A stretch of DNA of 64,000 nt from an uncultured Pseudobdellovibrio sp. (GCA_966250225.1 CBINGM010000004.1:86457-150456), one strand, 5' to 3'. Positions 53,323 to 64,000 are shown, counted from the first letter of the stretch. Numbers and translations are program-made. Notes: a model not told the origin generated them from the sequence alone.

Positions 53323-54300
53323 CTATTTAATTAAACCAATTTCACGAAGTCTTTGCATCAAAAATTCGTGACCAGTGATGTCTGGGTATTTAGCGCCCGC
53401 ACCACGGCAAGATGGTAAACAGCTTAATAAGCTTTCTGGATGCGGATGCATAAAGAATGGCATTGAATAACGAGACTGATTTGTTCCATCTTGAGGGTTG
53501 ATCACACGGTGTGTAGTCGATGGAATCACTTCGTTTGTTAAACGAGCTAACATATCACCCGCATCAACGATTAATGTTCCGAAATCAGATTCGATATCTA
53601 ACCAAGTGCCATCGCGGTCTTTTAATTGAAGACCTGATTGCGTAGCCGCCGGTAAGATCGTGATAAAGTTAATATCTTCGTGAGCCGCTGCACGAATGCA
53701 ACGAGGATCAGTGCCTTCTGGAATTGGTGGGTAATGAAGTAAACGTAAGATCGAGTTACCTTCTTGCACCATGTTTTTAAAATAAGTTTTTTCAACTTCT
53801 AATGGATACGTTAACGCTTCCATCATTTGAATGCCGGCTTCTTCTAATTTAGAGAATAATTTTTCAAACACCGGACGGAATTCAGGAATCGTATCATCGG
53901 GCCAAATGTTTTTTGGATAGTATTTAGAAAACTGGTGATCGTCTGGAACTTCACGACCCACGTGCCAGAACTCTTTTAAGTCTTTTACTTCAGCGCCCTT
54001 CGCGTGCTCTGTACCAAACGCCGTGTAACCACGTTGGCCGCCACCTTTTTCAGAAATGTAAGTGCGTTTTTTCGCATCTGGAAGCGCGTAGAATTTTTCT
54101 AAGATTTGATAAGATTGTTTAAGAAGGTCTTGATCAACATCGTGATCTTTTAACACGATAAAACCGTAATCTTTAATGCCTGTGAAAAGCTGATCGATGA
54201 ACTTCACTTTGTCGGCTTCAGAGCCTTTCGTGTAGCTTCCAAGGCTTAATGTTGGAACTTTACGTAACGTGGATTGAGCTTTATTTTCTTGCGTTTGCAT
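53323..54300 (-). CDS. 2-oxoglutarate/Fe(II) oxygenase, isopenicillin N synthase family
   Basis: LRLLHYPP, AAHEDINFITIL, STTHRV, RYSMPFF. Confidence 0.92.
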   Translation of the reverse strand: MQTQENKAQSTLRKVPTLSLGSYTKGSEADKVKFIDQLFTGIKDYGFIVLKDHDVDQDLLKQSYQILEKFYALPDAKKRTYISEKGGGQRGYTAFGTEHAKGAEVKDLKEFWHVGREVPDDHQFSKYYPKNIWPDDTIPEFRPVFEKLFSKLEEAGIQMMEALTYPLEVEKTYFKNMVQEGNSILRLLHYPPIPEGTDPRCIRAAAHEDINFITILPAATQSGLQLKDRDGTWLDIESDFGTLIVDAGDMLARLTNEVIPSTTHRVINPQDGTNQSRYSMPFFMHPHPESLLSCLPSCRGAGAKYPDITGHEFLMQRLREIGLIK

Positions 54301-54433
54301 GCAAATCTCCCCTACTTATCGTGTTTTTCAAACCTAACCAATAAACCATATCTTAGGCAAAATCTCTAGAAAATGGCGACGTGTTAAGCAAGTATTTGAC
54401 GATTTTTCAGGACTGTAAAGGAGTTGGACAGTG

Positions 54434-55603
54434 TTAGCTCACTATAATTGGAAGAGACAGTGAAATTTCAGTAAATTCATTAAGTATTGAATTAATCTCA
54501 AGTTTTCCATTGTGCTGTTTCAAATATTCATTTGCGCTAAACAGCCCTATTCCAGAACCGGATGTTTGGTGATTTTCTTTACCATGCGAAAGCCTTTCTT
54601 TACCCAAAGCTTTTAATATCGAATCAGGAATGCCTCGGCCCTTATCTTTTATTTTTAATACGCAAAATTGATTAGACCTCATAGTACTAACCGTAATTAT
54701 TTTACGCTCTTGCGGCATGCCTTCCAAAGCCTCGGCAGCATTATTTATAAGATTACTCGTGATCCTCTCCAGCTCTGACGAGTCAATTGCACATAATATT
54801 TTACTAGAATCTAGCTCCAGTTTAAAATCAATACTCTCTCTCTTATATAGAACTTCTTTTTCAGAAACTATTTTCGTTACTGCATAATTTACGTCTGTAA
54901 TGAGCTCTTTGGAAGTCGGCGACAATAGATCACTCGCAATATCTGTTATCCGATTAATAGCTTGATTAAATAAGTCATTTACTTCTTGTTCAGGTGATTG
55001 CAACCGAGAAGAAATTAGATTTAATACCGACAAAGGAGAGCGAATATCATGTGCTAATTTTAAAGAAATTAGTTCCTTTGCATTAGCGATCTCCTGCAAT
55101 CTATTAAGCTCAAGCTTTTTTCTTTTTTCATTTACGCTGAAGATAAGGCTTGTCATCGCGATGATAACCAAACCTATGAATCTCATCAACCACAGCGCTA
55201 TGAGAAAATAGTTGGTATTTGTAATTTGAAAAGAAAGAGAATATTCCGTACCACTTAGTGACTTAATGATTAGATCTTTATTGACATGATTTAATGTTAA
55301 GAAGCTGTGAAGGCTATCACATTCATCTTGAATGGACGTAAAGTCGATAATTACTCTCTGGAGATCTAATCTAGTAAGCTTACTACATCTAATATAATTA
55401 GAACGAGTAATGTCAGCCACCATATTTGATAGCTTTTGATAGTTATCTGAATAAAATTCACTTCTAAACTGGTTAGCCAGAGAAACGGTTATCTTCTCGG
55501 CGTAATGAGTTTGGATGGCATAGAAAATACATTGGCACAGCAAAAGCCATCCAAGAACAGAGCTAATAATAACGATCTTAAATGTATTCTTTTTGTACCA
55601 CAT
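54434..55603 (-). CDS. Membrane sensor histidine kinase, with no response regulator nearby
   Basis: Two TM helices, H-box LAHDIRSPL, N-box LINNAAEA, DKGRGIP, GSGIGL. Confidence 0.93.
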   Translation of the reverse strand: MWYKKNTFKIVIISSVLGWLLLCQCIFYAIQTHYAEKITVSLANQFRSEFYSDNYQKLSNMVADITRSNYIRCSKLTRLDLQRVIIDFTSIQDECDSLHSFLTLNHVNKDLIIKSLSGTEYSLSFQITNTNYFLIALWLMRFIGLVIIAMTSLIFSVNEKRKKLELNRLQEIANAKELISLKLAHDIRSPLSVLNLISSRLQSPEQEVNDLFNQAINRITDIASDLLSPTSKELITDVNYAVTKIVSEKEVLYKRESIDFKLELDSSKILCAIDSSELERITSNLINNAAEALEGMPQERKIITVSTMRSNQFCVLKIKDKGRGIPDSILKALGKERLSHGKENHQTSGSGIGLFSANEYLKQHNGKLEINSILNEFTEISLSLPIIVS

Positions 55604-55684
55604 GATAACAGTTATAACATTATTTCATGGGTTATTGTAATCCGAGATTTTTAATCCTATAAATAAGTCCTTATTGGAGAATTT

Positions 55685-56041
55685 ATGCAAAACAAAACAT
55701 TCGTACTTGCAGTTTCATTGTTCAACTTATTCAGCAATATTAAGGCCTTTGGTCAGGTTCAGACACAAGAACCTAAATTTGTTGAAGGTGATGCTATCGT
55801 TAGAGTAAAATCGGACAAAGTCCCAGATGTACGAAAAGCCTTGTCTAAGAACGGAGTTTACATTGATGAATTTAGCCAAGTGGTTACCCATCAAGAACAA
55901 AGTTATATTGATATTAAGTGTTTTAATTGTATTATTAATAATAAGCACTTTACTGACTACATCCAACACTCGGACAATGACATCGTTACAACTAAGAAAT
56001 ATGACAAAGACTCTAAAGTATCTAACAATTCGTGGAAGTGA
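55685..56041 (+). CDS. Small secreted protein (118 aa), possible precursor peptide
   Basis: GGAG SD, signal-like MQNKTFVLAVSLFNLFSNIKAFG, contains CFNC; the 3' part overlaps the next gene. Confidence 0.65.
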   Translation: MQNKTFVLAVSLFNLFSNIKAFGQVQTQEPKFVEGDAIVRVKSDKVPDVRKALSKNGVYIDEFSQVVTHQEQSYIDIKCFNCIINNKHFTDYIQHSDNDIVTTKKYDKDSKVSNNSWK

Positions 56042-57431
56042 TCCAAAAGAATTAGGCTCACTATCTTTAAGTCCAAAAACTTCAGATCAGGTAGATAATC
56101 AGGTAGTTTTAAACGCTCTGGTATCTACTTTAGTTAAGTATGGCCAGACTGGAAAAATCGAACCTTACTTAGCTAGCTCTTGGGATGTAACAGACGATGG
56201 ACTTGAATGGCTTTTTCATATTCGTGACCACTTTACGTGCGAAAATGGCCCTCCAATTACAGCTGAATTATTCGCTGCAAGTTTAAAAAGAAGCTTCAAA
56301 GGAAATATAGGAAAATCAGATAAAACTGAATTTAATAAACTGCTTGGCTGGTCACAGTTTATCAATGGCTCTGAAGATTTACCTGGACTATCATTTGATA
56401 ACAACACACTTAAGTTAAAATTTTTCTCCAAGCCAAAAGATATTCTTAATTTTTTAAGAATGCCCTATTTTGGTTTATGGTGTAACAACGAAACTGTTAA
56501 ATCTGAGTTTGATATTTCGGGGTTTCGGTCATCAGGTGCTTATAAGCTAAAACAAATTATCAATTCACATTTATTTCAATTAGAAATTCGAACAGATCAG
56601 CCAACCTACAGTATTGATGCACCTCAAGAGATTATCGTGGGCACTACTACTTCAAAAAGTTTAGTCCCAGATTCGGTTCCAACTATCTATAAATTGATTC
56701 ATGATGGAATGGATATGAAGATGGAACACTTTAACTCAATGTCTTCTCCGCCATCTATCTTTCAAGGCATCGTACTTCATCCAAATACAGTTTTTTTTAG
56801 CAAATTACATAATCGAAGAGTTTTTGCAGCCCGACTAAATTCTTTTTTGTCTGAACAAAGTAGTATGAAAATTTCTCCGGGAATGTATTTAGATTCTCAA
56901 AAAGTTATTCCAAGAAAAGATCAAAACGTATTCGATAAGCCCTCAAAACCTCTACGTATTGCTTTTCAATATAAATCGCCATTTCATGAATCTAATATCT
57001 TTTGGCAAAACATGCTCGAAAAAGTTCTTCACGATATTCCTTACGAAATCATATATCCAGACCCTCTAGATCCAATGTGGGTAAAACATATGTTAAACAA
57101 TCCAGATTTTGATATTAGAACGGCACATGTTTACGCTGGTACTACCTATAACTTAAGCACCATTAAAATGATGTTTTGCACTGATATGGGAATTTCTTTT
57201 CCAGACGTTAATAAAAACATGTGTCGTTTAGTAGAAAAATACGAAAGCCAATCGAGAGAAATAGACGAAGAATTTAAAAAAACTTTTGAAGTAAATCTTG
57301 AGGAAGATGCTACTTTGTTTCCAATTTACCACGCCAATGACCAATGGCTAATCTCAAATTTAATTTCTATGGAGTCTATGCCAACATCCATTATTTATCC
57401 TTTATTTGAAAATATTAGGTTCAAACAATGA
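55866..57431 (+). CDS. Family 5 ABC-type solute-binding protein (SBP_bac_5-like)
   Basis: LVSTLVKY...IEPYLASSWDV...WLFHIRD...G.PITAE, SSGAYKL. ATG 55866 has a GGAG SD and is followed by the hydrophobic anchor VILILSVLIVLLIIST. Alternative start at 56001. Confidence 0.85.
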   Translation: MNLAKWLPIKNKVILILSVLIVLLIISTLLTTSNTRTMTSLQLRNMTKTLKYLTIRGSDPKELGSLSLSPKTSDQVDNQVVLNALVSTLVKYGQTGKIEPYLASSWDVTDDGLEWLFHIRDHFTCENGPPITAELFAASLKRSFKGNIGKSDKTEFNKLLGWSQFINGSEDLPGLSFDNNTLKLKFFSKPKDILNFLRMPYFGLWCNNETVKSEFDISGFRSSGAYKLKQIINSHLFQLEIRTDQPTYSIDAPQEIIVGTTTSKSLVPDSVPTIYKLIHDGMDMKMEHFNSMSSPPSIFQGIVLHPNTVFFSKLHNRRVFAARLNSFLSEQSSMKISPGMYLDSQKVIPRKDQNVFDKPSKPLRIAFQYKSPFHESNIFWQNMLEKVLHDIPYEIIYPDPLDPMWVKHMLNNPDFDIRTAHVYAGTTYNLSTIKMMFCTDMGISFPDVNKNMCRLVEKYESQSREIDEEFKKTFEVNLEEDATLFPIYHANDQWLISNLISMESMPTSIIYPLFENIRFKQ

Positions 57432-58303
57432 CTCTTCTAGACAAGTTGGTTTTGCTTAACCCAACTGTCGTTGGAATTAATATACAAGAAATTCGATCTG
57501 ATAATGGCGAGCCGCTGGGGTGGAATGCCGTCGTTGAGACATCACGTAATTTAGCCTTTTCGGGCGGTACAAGCTCCGACAAAGACACTGCCATTCGTAT
57601 AGCCCTAGCTGAATGTTTCGAAAGGTCGTTATTTTTAAAAATCTATAACATGAAGACCCCTCTTTTTTCAGAATTGTTGCTGGATAAGCATCCCAGCTCA
57701 TCCGGATTTGCATGTGGATTTCAGAAATCTTCGACAAAATTTCGCTCAATTTGTGAAGGATTAGAGCGTTGGGCATGGTCTCAATGGATTGATAGCAAAT
57801 ACATAATGCCGAAAATATCATCGATTGATCATGCTTCTAAGTTAACGACATTTTTAGCCAGTAAATTTGAAAAACATAGTTTTTTTTCAAAAGAAATCTA
57901 TTTCGAAGGCAACAGATATAGATTCGTAATTTTTTTAGGCGAACACAAAAGTGGTATTTTTGCTGGATCCCGAGTCAGCACCTTCCTAGACTCTAACATT
58001 TGGGAACATGCACTGATTGAAGCCTATAGAAATCTTGAAAACTTTAAACTTTTTCAAAAAAATGGTACAGCTGAATTTTTCGAACAACTAGATATAATTG
58101 GTAAGCGCTCTAGATATTTTGGTTCACACGCAGAAGAAGCTTGGACGCAAATTAATGCTGCCGAAAAAGAATTATGGAAACAGCCAGTTGCTGAAGTTTC
58201 GAAATTTGTTGAAACAGAGATTGCTGATATTTACCTACATCGATGCCTTATGAAGGATTACATAGGCTGGCACAAAGGCGAACCGAATAGGTTTGTGTAC
58301 TGA
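57428..58303 (+). CDS. Short YcaO-like protein
   Basis: GGTSSDKDTAIRIALAECFER and SSGFACG...ICEGLER match the two YcaO ATP/Mg-binding motifs; ATGA overlap with the SBP gene; no C-terminal PxPxP. Confidence 0.8.
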   Translation: MTLLDKLVLLNPTVVGINIQEIRSDNGEPLGWNAVVETSRNLAFSGGTSSDKDTAIRIALAECFERSLFLKIYNMKTPLFSELLLDKHPSSSGFACGFQKSSTKFRSICEGLERWAWSQWIDSKYIMPKISSIDHASKLTTFLASKFEKHSFFSKEIYFEGNRYRFVIFLGEHKSGIFAGSRVSTFLDSNIWEHALIEAYRNLENFKLFQKNGTAEFFEQLDIIGKRSRYFGSHAEEAWTQINAAEKELWKQPVAEVSKFVETEIADIYLHRCLMKDYIGWHKGEPNRFVY

Positions 58304-58307
58304 TAAT

Positions 58308-58354
58308 ACAAAAAAGCTGTCGAGTTATCCCACTTACGGTTTTTTCATTTTTTG
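58308..58354 (+). repeat. Imperfect ~46-bp direct repeat, copy 1 (terminator-like hairpin)
   Basis: ACAAAAAAGCTGTCGAGTTATCCCACTTACGGTTTTTTCATTTTTTG; matches 59334-59378. Confidence 0.75.
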
Positions 58355-58468
58355 AGTCTTTTATTTTTCATCAAAAAATTCCAATCGAGCTTTCCACTTA
58401 AATCATTATCCAACTACTACAACTAACCATCTTTGAAGTACCAAAACATTATGATAATCTAAAAAAAT

Positions 58469-59026
58469 ATGGAAAAAGTTAGCTCCAAAGACATCATCAT
58501 AAAAAGCTGCACCTCTACAGATATCGAATTTATTGTAGAATATCTCAGTAATTGTTCAGAAGAATTCTTACGGTCTTTTGGTGCTGATAAGAAGAAAATT
58601 CCGCCTAAAGAAATTTTGACTGAAAACTTCAAAAAACTTTTGGATTCTCAAGGTATTATTAGAACTTTTGTGATTGTTTGGTACAAAAATAAAAGAATTG
58701 GTCATTTCAATGTAAATAATATTATTGAAAATGAAAGTGGTATATTTCATGGACAGATTTGGGACACGGCTCTCAGAGGTCTCAACATTGGTCTAATTTC
58801 GGGAATAATGGCTTGTGATCACTTTTTTAAAGAGCTAAATTTTAAAAAAATTATTTTCAAAGTACCTCTAATAAATGGCCCAGCTAATCGAGCGATTCAA
58901 AAATTGGGCTTTAGCAGTTTAGGTGTAGTTACATACGAGTTTGCTTTGATGATTGAACCTTTAAGCTGCAATCTCTACGAAGTAGATAAAAACAGAATCC
59001 AAGAGCTTAAGGCGGTTAAACTTTAG
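58469..59026 (+). CDS. GNAT (RimJ/RimL-like) N-acetyltransferase
   Basis: RIGHFNV, LRGLNIG, NGPANRAIQKLGF. Confidence 0.85.
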   Translation: MEKVSSKDIIIKSCTSTDIEFIVEYLSNCSEEFLRSFGADKKKIPPKEILTENFKKLLDSQGIIRTFVIVWYKNKRIGHFNVNNIIENESGIFHGQIWDTALRGLNIGLISGIMACDHFFKELNFKKIIFKVPLINGPANRAIQKLGFSSLGVVTYEFALMIEPLSCNLYEVDKNRIQELKAVKL

Positions 59027-59169
59027 GGGACTTCCCGACAGCTTTCGTCCCTGTAAAATCTGAACACACAAGGATTTTAAATCCCTCGTCCATAGGATGC
59101 CACGGCCACTGGGCCATGGTCTTGATTACAAATCAACATCTAAGAACAAACGTGCAACAAGCTAGATCA

Positions 59170-59280
59170 CTAAATACTTCGGACGACTATGATAATTCCA
59201 AGAATCATCATAACCAGTCTTAGGACTTCTTTAGAAATGCTAAGTAAGCGCCGATACTTTAGGTACGAAGACTTATTCAT
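59170..59280 (-). CDS. Small basic/hydrophobic peptide, 36 aa (MNKSSYLKYRRLLSISKEVLRLVMMILGIIIVVRSI), type I toxin-like
   Basis: Not in ORF track; AGGAGG SD 7 nt upstream of ATG; C-terminal TM-like helix. Confidence 0.6.
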   Translation of the reverse strand: MNKSSYLKYRRLLSISKEVLRLVMMILGIIIVVRSI

Positions 59281-59333
59281 ATGGCGACCTCCTCTCCGGA
59301 TCCGTTTAATCCGAAAGCTGGATGTCAGATAAC

Positions 59334-59378
59334 ACAAAAAGCTGTCAGGTTATCCGCCTACAGCTTTTTCATTTTTTG
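59334..59378. terminator. Bidirectional terminator; copy 2 of the 58308 repeat
   Basis: AAAAAGCTGT-caggttatccgcct-ACAGCTTTTT. Confidence 0.75.
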
Positions 59379-59405
59379 TACCTAATTTTTTTCTATGAAA
59401 TTTCC

Positions 59406-59861
59406 TTAATCCAGCTTTCCAAGCCCTAGATCATTGTGGCGCTCAAACGTTAAACCCGAAACTTGATCGTTCAGGTAAGTCTCAAAAGCCTGCTTTAAAT
59501 CAGCGAAAAACTTTTCCATCGCCGTTTCAAAATCGCAGCTATCAGAAAATGTGGTTTCAATTTTTCGTTCTAGCTGGTGACGCTTTTGATACTCATTCAG
59601 TAAGAAAAAACCCATCTCGCCGTCGTTCATGCGAAATTCGATTTCTATTTTTCGTTGCTGAACACGGTTAATAATAAAACTAAATTGAATCGTTAGATTT
59701 TTCTCTGCATGCGCGTAAATATAAAACATCGACTCTAAAGGTAATACCGAAGGATTTGCATAAAACGAATTTTTAAATTTATAACGGTAATGCAATAGAA
59801 CGGACTCAAACTTTTTTAGGTGCTTAACGAAAATGTCATGTTGTTCGTTAAGTTCCGTCAT
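59406..59861 (-). CDS. Hypothetical protein
   Basis: 151-aa ORF starting 2 nt after the trmO stop. Confidence 0.65.
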   Translation of the reverse strand: MTELNEQHDIFVKHLKKFESVLLHYRYKFKNSFYANPSVLPLESMFYIYAHAEKNLTIQFSFIINRVQQRKIEIEFRMNDGEMGFFLLNEYQKRHQLERKIETTFSDSCDFETAMEKFFADLKQAFETYLNDQVSGLTFERHNDLGLGKLD

Positions 59862-59863
59862 TA

Positions 59864-60649
59864 TTATTTCTCGCTCACAAATTTGATCGCAAATACTTCT
59901 GCCTTCGTTGGCGCTGTAAAACGAAAATGAATATCTCCGTCATACAAACGAAACGCATGGTCACTGCGGTACGGAGAATTACCCGACTCTTCAAAACCCC
60001 GGTAGACAACCGGACGAGGATCTTGTTTTAAAATATCGATGATCGTTTCTTCTAATTTAGAATTATCTAAACGCTCCATCCAATGATTTAAAACAGTGCG
60101 AGCTTCATCGTTAAAAGAAACTTCAATCGCCGCCACTTGATTTTCATCTTTTGTGGCCCAACCGCCACGCGCCGAAGGTAAAGATTCAAACTGCGGAAGG
60201 TACGGTTTAATATCTAAGATCGGTGTTCCGTCGACAAGATCTAAGCCACCTAAATAAATTTTTCCGCCTTCAATTTTTTCAACTGTGGCTAAAGATAATC
60301 CCAATGGGTTTGGTCTGTGCGGAGAACGTGTGGCAAACACACCGATTGTTTCACCTTTTAAGCGTGGTGGATGAATCTTCGGATGATATTTTGTGTTGGT
60401 GTTTAAGTGAAATACCCACGTCACCCACACATGCGAATACTCTTCTAAACCTTGCAAGGCAAACTCAGGCTGCCATTCAGGCAAGATCGAAAGCTCAGAC
60501 ACTGTTTGTTTAACAAGCCCCGATTGGCGAGGAACTCCGAACTTATCAGGATAGGCGCTTTTGATAAAGCCAATGGGTTTGAATGTGAAAGTGTTTAAAG
60601 TGTCGCTCACGCTTGATTTTATAAGGGAAATCGCAGCTCTGTGCAACAC
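59864..60649 (-). CDS. trmO: tRNA (t6A37-N6)-methyltransferase TrmO (TsaA)
   Basis: KFGVPRQ, GVFATRSPHRPNPLGLS, DLVDGTPILDIKPY, QDPRP. Start may be GTG 60610. Confidence 0.93.
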   Translation of the reverse strand: MLHRAAISLIKSSVSDTLNTFTFKPIGFIKSAYPDKFGVPRQSGLVKQTVSELSILPEWQPEFALQGLEEYSHVWVTWVFHLNTNTKYHPKIHPPRLKGETIGVFATRSPHRPNPLGLSLATVEKIEGGKIYLGGLDLVDGTPILDIKPYLPQFESLPSARGGWATKDENQVAAIEVSFNDEARTVLNHWMERLDNSKLEETIIDILKQDPRPVVYRGFEESGNSPYRSDHAFRLYDGDIHFRFTAPTKAEVFAIKFVSEK

Positions 60650-62067: not shown

Positions 62068-63153
62068 TTAGAAAGCGTATGTTAAACCAACAGTACCTAA
62101 TAGGTCTGTAGAGTTAACTTTTTGAGTTCCAGCTAATAATGAACCGTCTAAAGAAAGTTTACCAAGTTTTAAACCAGCGCCAGCTGCGAAAGTTGTGCTG
62201 TTTTCGCCTGGAGCGAATTCAGATGTAGTAGCTGTAGCAGTCTCAGTTTTTTCATTTTGGATAAGAACGTTTTGAGTTACAGATCCACGTAATGTTAACC
62301 AAGAAGCAGCGTTAGCTTCAACACCGATGATTAAAGGTAACATTAAAGAAGTTTCTTTAATTTCAGCACCTTTTGAATCTTTAGATTGAGCTGATGCTAA
62401 AGCAGCACCCCAGAAAAATTCATTGCCTTCAGATTTAACAGTGTTGATAGCACCAACAGTGATATCAGTTGTTTTGATTTCAGAAGCAACTGTTCCAGCA
62501 ACTGTATCTTCATGACCACCCATAGCTACGTCAGCGTATGCGTACATGTCAGAAGCAACCCAGAAACCACCACGTACTGCTACGTTTGATTTACCTTTGA
62601 ATTCGTTGTTAGCAGCGTCTTCCCATTTGTCAGTTAAACCTAAATCAACTGTTGCATCCCAAGTAGAAGTAGCAGCACCGAATTTTAAACCCATTGTGCT
62701 TTCTTTCTCGTCTGCAGCTTTGTCGTTGTAGTTAGAGTAAACTAAAGTACCAGCCCAAGCCATGTCGCCAGATTTCATACCGTAAGTAACTTCGATTGGA
62801 TTTTGCTGAGCGATAGCTGCAGCAGAAACCGCTGAAGTTGAACGTTGAGAGAAAGATCTAACGTCATCGTGACCTAAAGATAAAGCCCATTTAGCATCGC
62901 CGTGTGAACGGATTAATAATGCTTCAGCACCAGTTGATGGGTTGTTAGCAGTAGCACCTGTAACTAAAGCTACATCTGTTAAACCAGATTCGATAGTTAA
63001 AGAGTCAGAAACTGTGAACATATCAGCAGGTTTAGCGTAAACAGTAGATGCGTCAGTTAAGTGAGCAGCACCTTGTAAAGCTGTGATTCTTGCGCGTGTT
63101 GCGAAAGCAGAAGTTGAAGCTAATACGATCGCTAATGTTAATAATGATTTCAT
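62068..63153 (-). CDS. Major outer-membrane porin-like protein (resembles the Bdellovibrio PopA/Bd0427 family)
   Basis: Signal peptide (AFA-T), mature start TRARITAL, beta-strands, terminal LTYAF; codon usage like highly expressed genes. Confidence 0.8.
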   Translation of the reverse strand: MKSLLTLAIVLASTSAFATRARITALQGAAHLTDASTVYAKPADMFTVSDSLTIESGLTDVALVTGATANNPSTGAEALLIRSHGDAKWALSLGHDDVRSFSQRSTSAVSAAAIAQQNPIEVTYGMKSGDMAWAGTLVYSNYNDKAADEKESTMGLKFGAATSTWDATVDLGLTDKWEDAANNEFKGKSNVAVRGGFWVASDMYAYADVAMGGHEDTVAGTVASEIKTTDITVGAINTVKSEGNEFFWGAALASAQSKDSKGAEIKETSLMLPLIIGVEANAASWLTLRGSVTQNVLIQNEKTETATATTSEFAPGENSTTFAAGAGLKLGKLSLDGSLLAGTQKVNSTDLLGTVGLTYAF

Positions 63154-63184
63154 GTTAATAAATCCTTTCAAATTACATGTTCAA

Positions 63185-64000
63185 TTAGAACATGTAAGTT
63201 AAACCAACAGTTGTTAATAAAGAGTTACCGTTTAAGTCTTGAGTAGCTGCACCACCAGTTAAACCTTCTAAAGAACCGTCAACAGTGATTTTGTTGAATT
63301 TTAAACCAGCACCGATAGCTGCTGTAGTGTTATTAACGCCTGGAGCAGTTTCAGAGTTAGTTGTACCAGCAGTTTCATCTTTAGCGTTATCTAAGATAAC
63401 TGTTTGAGTTAATGAACCACGTAAAGTCATCCAAGAAGTAGCTTCTGCTTCTAAACCAACGATAACTGGTAAAGATAATTGAGTTACTTTGTTATCAGAA
63501 GTTTTATCTTTTTGGTTGTAGCTAGCTAATTTAGCACCGTAGAAAAATTCGTTGCCATCTTTTTTGTGAGAAGAAACAACACCTAAGTTGATACGAGTAA
63601 CATCAACTTTAGCTAATTCTGCACCAGAAGTTTGGTTTTCCATTTTCGCGCCAACGATAGCAGCGTTACCGTAAACATAAAGGTTTTCCATAGTGTAACC
63701 AGCGCCTACTGAGTAAGAACCAGTACCTTTGAAATCTACACCTTGTCCACCGGCAGCAGTTTTATCTTCAACTTTAGATGATAAACCTACACCTGCATCG
63801 ATGTCCCAAGCACCCATTAACATACCGAAACGAACGCCAGCAGAATCTTCTTTGATTTCTTGAGCTTTATCGTTGTAGTTAGAGTAAACTAGAGTAGCAC
63901 CCCAAGTCATATCGCCAGATTTCATACCGTATGAAAATTCAACCGGATTTTGTTGCTCAGTTACGTTTGTAGCTGGAACTAAATCCATGATTCTTCTTAA
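63185..64000 (-). CDS. Paralogous porin-like protein, partial (5' end beyond the window)
   Basis: The frame stays open to base 64000 (..LRRIMDL..). Shares QQNP.E..YGMKSGDM.WG.TLVYSNYNDKA and WLTLRGS/WMTLRGS with the neighbour. Confidence 0.85.
   Translation of the reverse strand, partial: LRRIMDLVPATNVTEQQNPVEFSYGMKSGDMTWGATLVYSNYNDKAQEIKEDSAGVRFGMLMGAWDIDAGVGLSSKVEDKTAAGGQGVDFKGTGSYSVGAGYTMENLYVYGNAAIVGAKMENQTSGAELAKVDVTRINLGVVSSHKKDGNEFFYGAKLASYNQKDKTSDNKVTQLSLPVIVGLEAEATSWMTLRGSLTQTVILDNAKDETAGTTNSETAPGVNNTTAAIGAGLKFNKITVDGSLEGLTGGAATQDLNGNSLLTTVGLTYMF

Follow-up and report, generated by a model that had tools for sequence, protein, structure and literature searches.

What is a YcaO-like enzyme doing among the genes of a sensor kinase? 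The question is raised by an island of five genes (54434-59026) in a 64,000-nucleotide stretch of DNA from an uncultured Pseudobdellovibrio sp. (GCA_966250225.1, CBINGM010000004.1:86457-150456; hereafter the window, with positions counted from its first letter). The island encodes a histidine kinase (HK) and, divergent from it, a small exported protein, a family 5 solute-binding protein (SBP), a short YcaO-like protein and a GNAT-like acetyltransferase (Table 1). A preliminary description of the window had proposed that together these genes form a signaling system based on a modified peptide. To our knowledge YcaO enzymes are known from antibiotic-type peptides that are made on ribosomes and modified after translation (RiPPs) and from a few housekeeping protein modifications, and none has been tied to a sensor kinase. 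The suspicion that the arrangement is new held up: a search of full-text literature found no description of a YcaO with a kinase and an SBP, in Bdellovibrio, or in two-component systems.

Comparison of related loci shows that four of the five genes – those for the HK, the small exported protein, the SBP and the YcaO – are a conserved unit. We suggest, with a rough probability of 0.35, that this unit is a self-contained, phylum-restricted signaling module built around a backbone-modifying enzyme: the YcaO would modify the small protein before export, and the SBP and kinase would read out the product. The architecture is distinct and well supported; the mechanism proposed for it is unproven.

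Table 1. Positions of the genes and other features of the island within the window.
Feature	Position	Strand	Length	Remarks
Sensor histidine kinase	54434..55603	-	389 aa	HATPase_c; HisKA weak
Divergent intergenic region	55604..55684		81 nt	between kinase and small ORF; presumed promoter
Small exported protein	55685..56041	+	118 aa	Sec signal peptide; candidate YcaO substrate
SBP family 5, OppA-like, membrane-anchored	55866..57431	+	521 aa	SBP_bac_5 plus conserved upstream anchor
Dual-coding overlap, small ORF (frame 0) / SBP (frame +1)	55866..56041	+	176 nt	
YcaO-like enzyme	57428..58303	+	291 aa	cytoplasmic; minimal; AF2/Foldseek fold and ExxER motifs
GNAT-like acetyltransferase	58469..59026	+	185 aa	Acetyltransf_3 21.8 bits (cut-off 25.4)

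A conserved four-gene unit

Open reading frame (ORF) calls confirm all five genes at the positions of Table 1, and direct reading of the sequence bears out the coupling claimed for the YcaO gene: its start (57428) shares an ATGA with the stop of the SBP gene (57431). The association of kinase, small secreted ORF, SBP and YcaO, on which the original proposal depended, extends well beyond the window. A YcaO gene lies directly 3' of an OppA-like family 5 SBP gene in approximately 36 independent loci, and contigs carrying YcaO homologues at 37–75% identity have the same four genes – HK, small ORF, SBP and YcaO – in unrelated neighborhoods. In a scan of one genome per species (17 loci), tblastn finds the SBP and HK genes beside the YcaO gene wherever the contig is long enough. 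Two gene orders are evident: in approximately 17 loci the HK gene is upstream and divergent, and in approximately 14 it lies 3' of the YcaO gene on the same strand (in 14 loci with the frames abutting or overlapping). The HK gene adjoins the SBP-YcaO pair in every locus with enough flanking sequence. Because this adjacency is kept through rearrangement of both side and strand, a functional link between the HK and the SBP-YcaO pair is indicated.

Starting from the SBP rather than from the YcaO leads to the same association. In metagenomes, a scan based on an SBP alignment gave 26 loci, with a YcaO gene immediately downstream in 19 of the 22 that could be assessed; the three exceptions (L037, L043 and L047) are lower-scoring, diverged SBP paralogues without a YcaO. 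The copy in L047 (254-1618) is also without the second conserved Cys of these proteins, and a TolC-like outer-membrane gene follows it. In L034 (2-4242) three more family 5 SBP paralogues stand directly upstream of the SBP-YcaO-HK unit.

All-vs-all clustering of ORFs of at least 80 aa from approximately 40 loci (the set meant below wherever families are said to recur) placed the SBP in 40 loci, the YcaO in 37, the HK in 29 and, by BLAST, the small ORF in 15; a spurious antisense ORF excepted, no other family occurred in more than three. The partners remarked on as missing in the preliminary description do not turn up elsewhere as recurrent neighbors. The island holds no gene for E1/ThiF, dehydrogenase, TfuA, protease or exporter, nor a permease or ATPase for the SBP, and none of these recurs. 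Among the called genes of 10 loci there is no E1/ThiF, RiPP recognition element (RRE) or FMN dehydrogenase family, and TfuA is absent from the annotated neighbors of the loci examined. A PADLOC scan returned no match to a defense system.

Homologues of the YcaO number 48 in a word-indexed search, nearly all of them 286–297 aa long, and a hidden Markov model (HMM) scan of 1.84 billion representatives gives 202 YcaO clusters (counted at 50% identity) at E<1e-30, nearly all of approximately 275–300 aa. The family is unnamed: no NCBIfam family covers the YcaO, the small protein or the GNAT, and public protein names for the members of the module offer nothing beyond ‘hypothetical protein’. Of the 17 YcaO loci in the species scan, 16 belong to Bdellovibrionota (Bdellovibrio, Bacteriovorax, Pseudobdellovibrio and Oligoflexia), and the remaining one to an unclassified uncultured-bacterium metagenome-assembled genome: where the organism is named, the family is restricted to predatory Bdellovibrionota. 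One carrier, Bdellovibrio sp. HCB337 (L010), is in culture and has a complete genome, which makes genetics feasible. In L049 (430-1308) an in-frame stop splits the YcaO-like gene into 430-1005 and 1006-1308, reflecting either a pseudogene or an assembly error; the adjoining kinase-like ORF is unusually long (875 aa).

Identity of the YcaO-like protein

Whether the protein encoded at 57428..58303 has a YcaO fold had been set beforehand as a test of the assignment. The window protein scores 16.9 bits against PF02624 (the Pfam family of the YcaO superfamily, InterPro entry IPR003776), under the gathering cut-off of 25.7. Nevertheless, 30 of 33 family members match PF02624 individually (E<=0.01; best 3.9e-7), and precomputed matches are present on some of them. 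Since a single-sequence search of the PDB found nothing, and a profile search gave marginal matches only (MJ1094, E 0.32), comparison of folds was needed. The AlphaFold2 (AF2) model has a predicted local distance difference test score (pLDDT) of 94.6 and a predicted template modeling score (pTM) of 0.91. When it was compared to the PDB with Foldseek, ranks 1 to 38 were taken exclusively by YcaO enzymes (E down to 5e-7, probability 1.00), including E. coli YcaO, McbD, the YcaOs of M. kandleri and M. jannaschii, LynD, TruD, the YcaO peptidase 7u58 and solved YcaO–substrate complexes. Identity in these alignments is 10–14%, and template modeling (TM) scores range from 0.44 to 0.62, McbD (6gri_D) being highest with a TMq of 0.62.

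The motifs tell the same story. An alignment of 33 family members, whose identity to the window protein ranges from 34 to 75%, has 40 invariant columns, among them AE62xxE65(R), G93-F-A-x-G-F, C109-E110-x-x-E113-(R)-W-x-W-S-x-W-I-D, G180-S-R-V and H194/E198/R201/N202; the corresponding letters in the window protein are AE62CFE65R66, CE110GLE113R114, GSRVS, H194..E198..R201N202 and, at the C-terminus, RFVY. Both E-x-x-E-R motifs are therefore kept, as had been claimed: E62, E65, E110 and E113 are invariant, and R66 and R114 are at least 90% conserved. Alignment by hhalign to E. coli YcaO (NC_000913) – of 10.6% probability, covering the first half of the protein only, and used for motif register alone – pairs E62/E65/R66 with E75/E78/R79 and E110/E113/R114 with E199/E202/R203, and the alignment of the profile to MJ1094 gives the same pairing of ExxER motifs. 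The equivalent of E113 has an experimental history: the E202A variant of E. coli YcaO was a control in the study of uL16 thioamidation (PMC13063428).

The C-terminus is equally conserved and of its own kind. It ends ...NRFVY, with F289, V290 and Y291 invariant and R288 at least 90% conserved, and no member of the 33-sequence alignment has a C-terminal PxPxP, whose absence from the window protein had been pointed out at the outset. Judged by the modeled fold and the aligned motifs, the product of 57428-58303 is a true YcaO, very divergent and short. It stands outside the azoline subclass (no PxPxP, no E1 partner) and outside the TfuA subclass. Its YcaO domain is the shortest seen in the comparison with solved structures, and would be of help in delimiting the smallest core needed for catalysis.

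The small protein, the SBP and their overlapping genes

The claim that a small secreted protein is encoded 5' of the SBP stands: the ORF is real and conserved. Its ATG is preceded by GGAG at seven bases, and the product comprises a Sec-type signal peptide (MQNKTFVLAVSLFNLFSNIKAFG, with cleavage predicted before Q), a conserved region (LSKNGVYIDEFSQVVTHQEQSYIDIKCFNCI), a [S/A/P]-x-N approximately 15 residues past it (at a fixed distance in most members) and, after this, a variable tail. The consensus is L-x-x-x-G-phi-x-x-D-E-x-S-x-phi-x-x-H-x-E-x-x-x-phi-D-phi-[STN]-[CSTD]-phi-[DN]-[CHD]. Inspection and alignment reveal homologous signal-peptide ORFs 5' of the SBP gene in 17 loci, and an HMM applied to the metagenome loci detects the ORF in seven (one a duplicate contig); a typical Sec signal peptide is present in every locus where the protein is found. 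These counts are lower bounds, the automatic detector having been too strict and having missed ORFs visible by eye. Searches for protein homologues recovered three and then six proteins, and no Pfam or NCBIfam family matches.

The SBP (SBP_bac_5, 45 bits against a cut-off of 32.4) raises the question of where its gene begins. Gene callers place the start at the equivalent of 56001, without a signal peptide, in a frame that remains open further 5'. Starting instead at the ATG at 55866 (with GGAG nine bases upstream) gives a Lys-rich N-terminus (MNLAKWLPIKNK) and a 21-residue hydrophobic helix – a predicted signal anchor with N-in topology. The upstream in-frame ATG, Lys-rich stretch and hydrophobic helix of approximately 20 residues are kept in 18 of 20 loci, often with a Shine-Dalgarno (SD) sequence; L001 has no alternative in-frame ATG between the start of the transmembrane anchor and the conserved N-terminal region of the SBP; and wobble positions are suppressed from 55866 onward. 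On these sequence features 55866 is the most likely start. The same evidence (no such ATG in L001, the conserved upstream ATG, SD, Lys and transmembrane elements, and the wobble suppression) led us to reject an anchor-less cytoplasmic SBP, starting at 56001, as a partner of the YcaO; and it favors independent initiation of the SBP over a programmed frameshift that would join the small ORF to it.

The periplasmic domain contains two near-invariant Cys (MMFC...C), a pair that fits a periplasmic location. Against solved structures the family profile matches OppA3 (4.6e-28), then OppAIV, DppE, MppA and OppA, and after these NikA; PrgZ, a pheromone receptor, is matched too. By this profile comparison the SBP is closest to peptide-binding SBPs.

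With the start at 55866, the genes for the small protein and the SBP share DNA in two frames, and an overlap of 92–176 nt is found in 16 loci. The small-protein motif DIKCFNCII is written in NNT codons only, so that the same DNA in the +1 frame supplies the NTN codons of the anchor helix, and the SD of the SBP gene (GGAG) falls within the conserved N-G-V codons of the small ORF. Among four relatives 17.6% of sites in the overlap vary, distributed by codon position as 6/14/11 in one frame and 11/6/14 in the other, with no wobble excess in either. In DNA coding for the SBP alone 37–45% of sites vary and third positions dominate (29/11/72), while 62% vary in DNA coding for the small protein alone just 5' of the overlap. 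Low variation without wobble excess, compared to the flanking single-coding DNA, argues that both frames are under selection. Through the overlap, expression of the two proteins is coupled. Long and conserved, with an anchor helix and a protein motif written on one stretch of DNA, the overlap is a clean instance of dual coding in nature.

The histidine kinase

The kinase matches HATPase_c at 59 bits (6.5e-16). Its two transmembrane helices flank a family-specific periplasmic domain of approximately 100 aa. An alignment of 18 orthologues shows this domain to be shared, with two invariant Cys (again a pair that fits a periplasmic location), and the catalytic boxes (the H-box LAHDIRSPL, N, G1 and G2) to be intact. 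The preliminary description had called the kinase an orphan. For the window this is correct, in that no response regulator lies beside the gene; as a description of the family it is not, because eight of the 18 aligned kinases (L002, L004, L005, L006, L008, L014, L015 and L016) carry a C-terminal receiver-like extension (DDD...LIDYE) of approximately 150–250 aa, possibly in two units in L002. The Pfam match of this extension to Response_reg is faint (E 0.072). The window kinase is without it, and a separate response regulator is neither present in the island nor recurrent.

A proposed role for the unit

The module has three components on its periplasmic side, namely the small protein, the SBP with its anchor and the sensor domain of the kinase. 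The YcaO is cytoplasmic and predicted to use ATP, and within the module just two targets lie in its reach: the small pre-protein as long as it has not been exported, and the core of the kinase. No component other than the small protein combines a wholly cytoplasmic stage, prior to export, with a conserved region that is not enzymatic; the gene of the small protein, two genes 5' of the YcaO gene, occupies the putative position of a RiPP-type precursor. Modification of the small protein is favored because stand-alone YcaOs modify whole proteins and because bufferins provide a precedent. E. coli YcaO is a stand-alone enzyme that thioamidates Met82 of uL16, a whole protein encoded elsewhere, and works in vitro with sulfide and without TfuA (PMC13063428); thioamidation by the YcaO described here is thus possible without TfuA. 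Bufferins derive from RiPP-like precursors of 80–120 aa with a Sec signal peptide, which undergo modification in the cytoplasm (PMC11626156).

According to our proposal the minimal YcaO would use ATP to activate an amide of the backbone, within the conserved region toward the C-terminus of the small pre-protein, while the latter is still in the cytoplasm. A thioamide, an azoline or a change of the amidine type would result, perhaps by different chemistry in the clade with Cys and in that with Ser, Thr, Asp or His. Guided by its signal peptide the small protein would exit through Sec, whereupon the modified protein, or a fragment of it, would be bound in the periplasm by the membrane-anchored OppA-like SBP. 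The SBP would in turn control the dedicated kinase through the family-specific periplasmic domain of the latter, with output passing to the fused receiver-like domain where there is one and otherwise to an unlinked partner. In this scheme we infer which substrate is modified and by what chemistry, what the SBP binds and which way the signal runs.

Several observations weigh against the proposal. That the YcaO modifies the small protein is a step we infer, and there is no RRE or E1-like partner of the kind that normally delivers a peptide to a YcaO. Several loci are without a recognizable small ORF. The Cys-containing core (CFNC) that had been singled out as the modified region did not generalize: the Cys pair is confined to one clade, with S, T, D, H or I elsewhere, and the aligned sequences point to no universally conserved nucleophilic residue. 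Because the pair is clade-specific, Cys-azoline chemistry cannot be the general reaction. Part of the small-protein motif could, moreover, be held in place by the overlapping frame that encodes the transmembrane helix. The mature protein (approximately 95 aa) is large for an OppA-type pocket; its AF2 model, built from six sequences, has a pLDDT of 45.8, is unreliable and was set aside. On the side of the enzyme, the family has Ala and Phe at the positions of S184 and N187 of E. coli YcaO, which we take to be ATP-site residues (an assignment that reportedly goes back to Dunbar et al. 2014); the nucleotide site would thus not be fully canonical. Lastly, the SBPs of L004 (6063-6358) and L015 (6421-6514) appear to be without the N-terminal anchor. 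In L004 the SBP gene does not overlap the small ORF, and in L015 the small ORF was not recognized.

We raise tentatively the further idea that the YcaO is integral to signal transduction: ATP-dependent modification of the backbone of the Sec-exported small protein would create or gate the ligand of the anchored peptide receptor and its kinase, and so give rise to an autocrine or cell–cell signal in Gram-negative predators. If true, the genes of ligand and receptor would be locked together by a conserved dual-coding overlap of approximately 100–180 nt, and the signal would be of a previously unrecognized kind in Gram-negative predatory bacteria. Should the modification-signaling reading hold, the family might also prove to be a new functional class of minimal YcaO, a suggestion that we likewise offer with reserve. 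Sensing of prey and kin by predators is poorly understood, and with the module it can be put directly to the test whether a protein or peptide modified after translation serves as a periplasmic signal.

Other explanations

The unit may instead sense a ligand that comes from outside. The anchored SBP, with the small protein as an accessory or inhibitor, would detect an exogenous peptide – a fragment of prey cell wall or protein – and switch the kinase; the YcaO would be an effector under control of the kinase, or would modify the kinase or an unlinked protein. We regard this as the main rival, only slightly less probable than our own proposal. SBP-dependent kinases are well known (LuxP/LuxQ, TorT/TorS, ChvE/VirA), the closest solved relatives of the SBP include MppA (which binds murein tripeptide) and OppA, and the YcaO family is confined, where named, to predators. 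The 14 loci in which the HK gene directly follows the YcaO gene are in keeping with a YcaO tied to the kinase, and no nucleophile is conserved in all of the small proteins. Stand-alone YcaOs, furthermore, modify proteins encoded elsewhere, such as uL16 (PMC13063428). However, the cytoplasmic part of the kinase consists of ordinary H, N, G1 and G2 boxes and bears no mark of a substrate, and the explanation does not account for the co-inheritance, and co-encoding with the SBP, of a conserved small exported protein. Nor do we know of any precedent for a YcaO as the output of a two-component system.

An improbable explanation is that the unit buffers metal or stress in the periplasm, after the manner of bufferins: the YcaO would equip the small protein with thioamide or azoline ligands, the small protein would chelate metal in the periplasm, and the NikA/OppA-like SBP and the kinase would monitor the metal-loaded form. 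His, Glu and Asp abound in the conserved region of the small protein, and one clade has CxxC there as well; NikA-type binders of nickel or metallophores are among the solved relatives of the SBP; and bufferins, small proteins that are modified by enzymes and exported by Sec, bind copper (PMC11626156). Yet peptide binders outscore NikA with the SBP family profile, no metal transporter or metal-responsive regulator recurs, and the candidate ligand residues differ between clades of the small protein.

It is very unlikely that the YcaO-like protein serves as a scaffold without catalytic activity, or that the genes are associated without shared function: the window protein does fall under the Pfam threshold, is approximately 70–100 residues shorter than the smallest solved YcaOs (with TM scores of only 0.44–0.62) and differs from E. 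coli YcaO at some nucleotide-site positions, but the four Mg-binding glutamates are among the 40 columns that stay invariant between sequences of only 34–45% identity, both ExxER arginines are at least 90% conserved, and the association holds in approximately 36 loci, in two orders and many neighborhoods, and with the SBP-anchored search as well. The metal-buffer and inert-protein explanations are both less likely than modification of the small protein by the YcaO or sensing of an external ligand.

Relation to known systems

Among stand-alone YcaOs that modify proteins, we compared the E. coli enzyme (PMC13063428) and the methanogen YcaOs that act on McrA (PDB 6ci7, 6pe3/6peu). The fold is the same, the ExxER motifs align and an E1-like partner is lacking in all; those enzymes act on a whole protein rather than on a short leader–core peptide, as is proposed here too. 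The present family differs in length (291 aa vs. approximately 360–590 aa), in its own C-terminus (RFVY), in having no TfuA nearby, and in the tight linkage of its gene to those for a kinase, an SBP and a small exported protein; the substrates of the others are encoded elsewhere.

Azoline cyclodehydratases of the TOMM and cyanobactin type (McbD 6gri_D, LynD 4v1v, TruD 4bs9) include the best fold overlap (McbD, as above), and in one clade the candidate substrate described here has Cys and Ser in its conserved region. Unlike these systems, the module is without PxPxP, an E1/Ocin-ThiF or RRE partner, a dehydrogenase, a leader protease or an ABC exporter, and the candidate-substrate Cys is not family-wide.

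With bufferins (PMC11626156) the module shares a Sec-signal precursor of 80–120 aa encoded beside a (here putative) cytoplasmic modifying enzyme, and the (here predicted) use of Sec rather than a dedicated transporter. The enzyme, however, is a YcaO and not the MNIO plus DUF2063 of bufferin clusters, and the SBP and kinase are fixed partners that are not described for those clusters. Pfam scans found no sequence relation between the small proteins.

A transporter-less SBP beside a kinase with a periplasmic domain recalls SBP-assisted kinases (LuxP/LuxQ, TorT/TorS, ChvE/VirA), and the place of the SBP in the peptide-binding cluster, with PrgZ among its profile matches, recalls the SBPs of peptide pheromones (PrgZ, 4faj). 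In contrast to the SBP-assisted kinases, the SBP is held at the membrane by its N-terminal anchor, forms part of a separate subfamily that has motifs of its own and is co-encoded with a YcaO; it is a putative binding partner of the kinase.

Genomic context and other genes of the window

The GNAT-like acetyltransferase, included as a member of the system in the preliminary description, is not part of the conserved unit. It gives weak PDB matches to AAC(6'). The gene is absent from the relatives at 60–75% identity (L001, L022-L026), in which SirB and GMPPB genes lie 3' of the YcaO gene, and from all other loci of the approximately 40 save one, the very distant L038, where a 38%-identical homologue (2141-2734, E 4e-41) lies 0.8 kb beyond the kinase. 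With two of approximately 40 loci carrying it, the GNAT was rejected as a core member; it can be no more than a sporadic accessory, if its presence is not a coincidence.

Scans for consensus promoters and terminators found no more sites than expected by chance. Public sequencing runs containing module sequence are rhizosphere metagenomes only, with no RNA-seq run among them.

The island is compositionally distinct from its flanks, as first supposed: among 119 sliding windows of 4.6 kb (mean GC content 0.398, standard deviation 0.015) none is lower than the island, at 0.344. In the window (53323-60649) the module lies between genes for a 2OG-Fe(II) oxygenase and TrmO; in relatives at 60–75% identity (L001, L022, L024) it lies between genes for RlmL or a glyoxalase and those for SirB, GMPPB, IF-1 and Tex. 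The differing flanks, together with the low GC content, suggest that the module was relocated or transferred in the window. Further along, on the minus strand, 62068-63171 and 63185-63988 are tandem paralogous ORFs resembling outer-membrane proteins, both ending ...TVGLTY[A/M]F.

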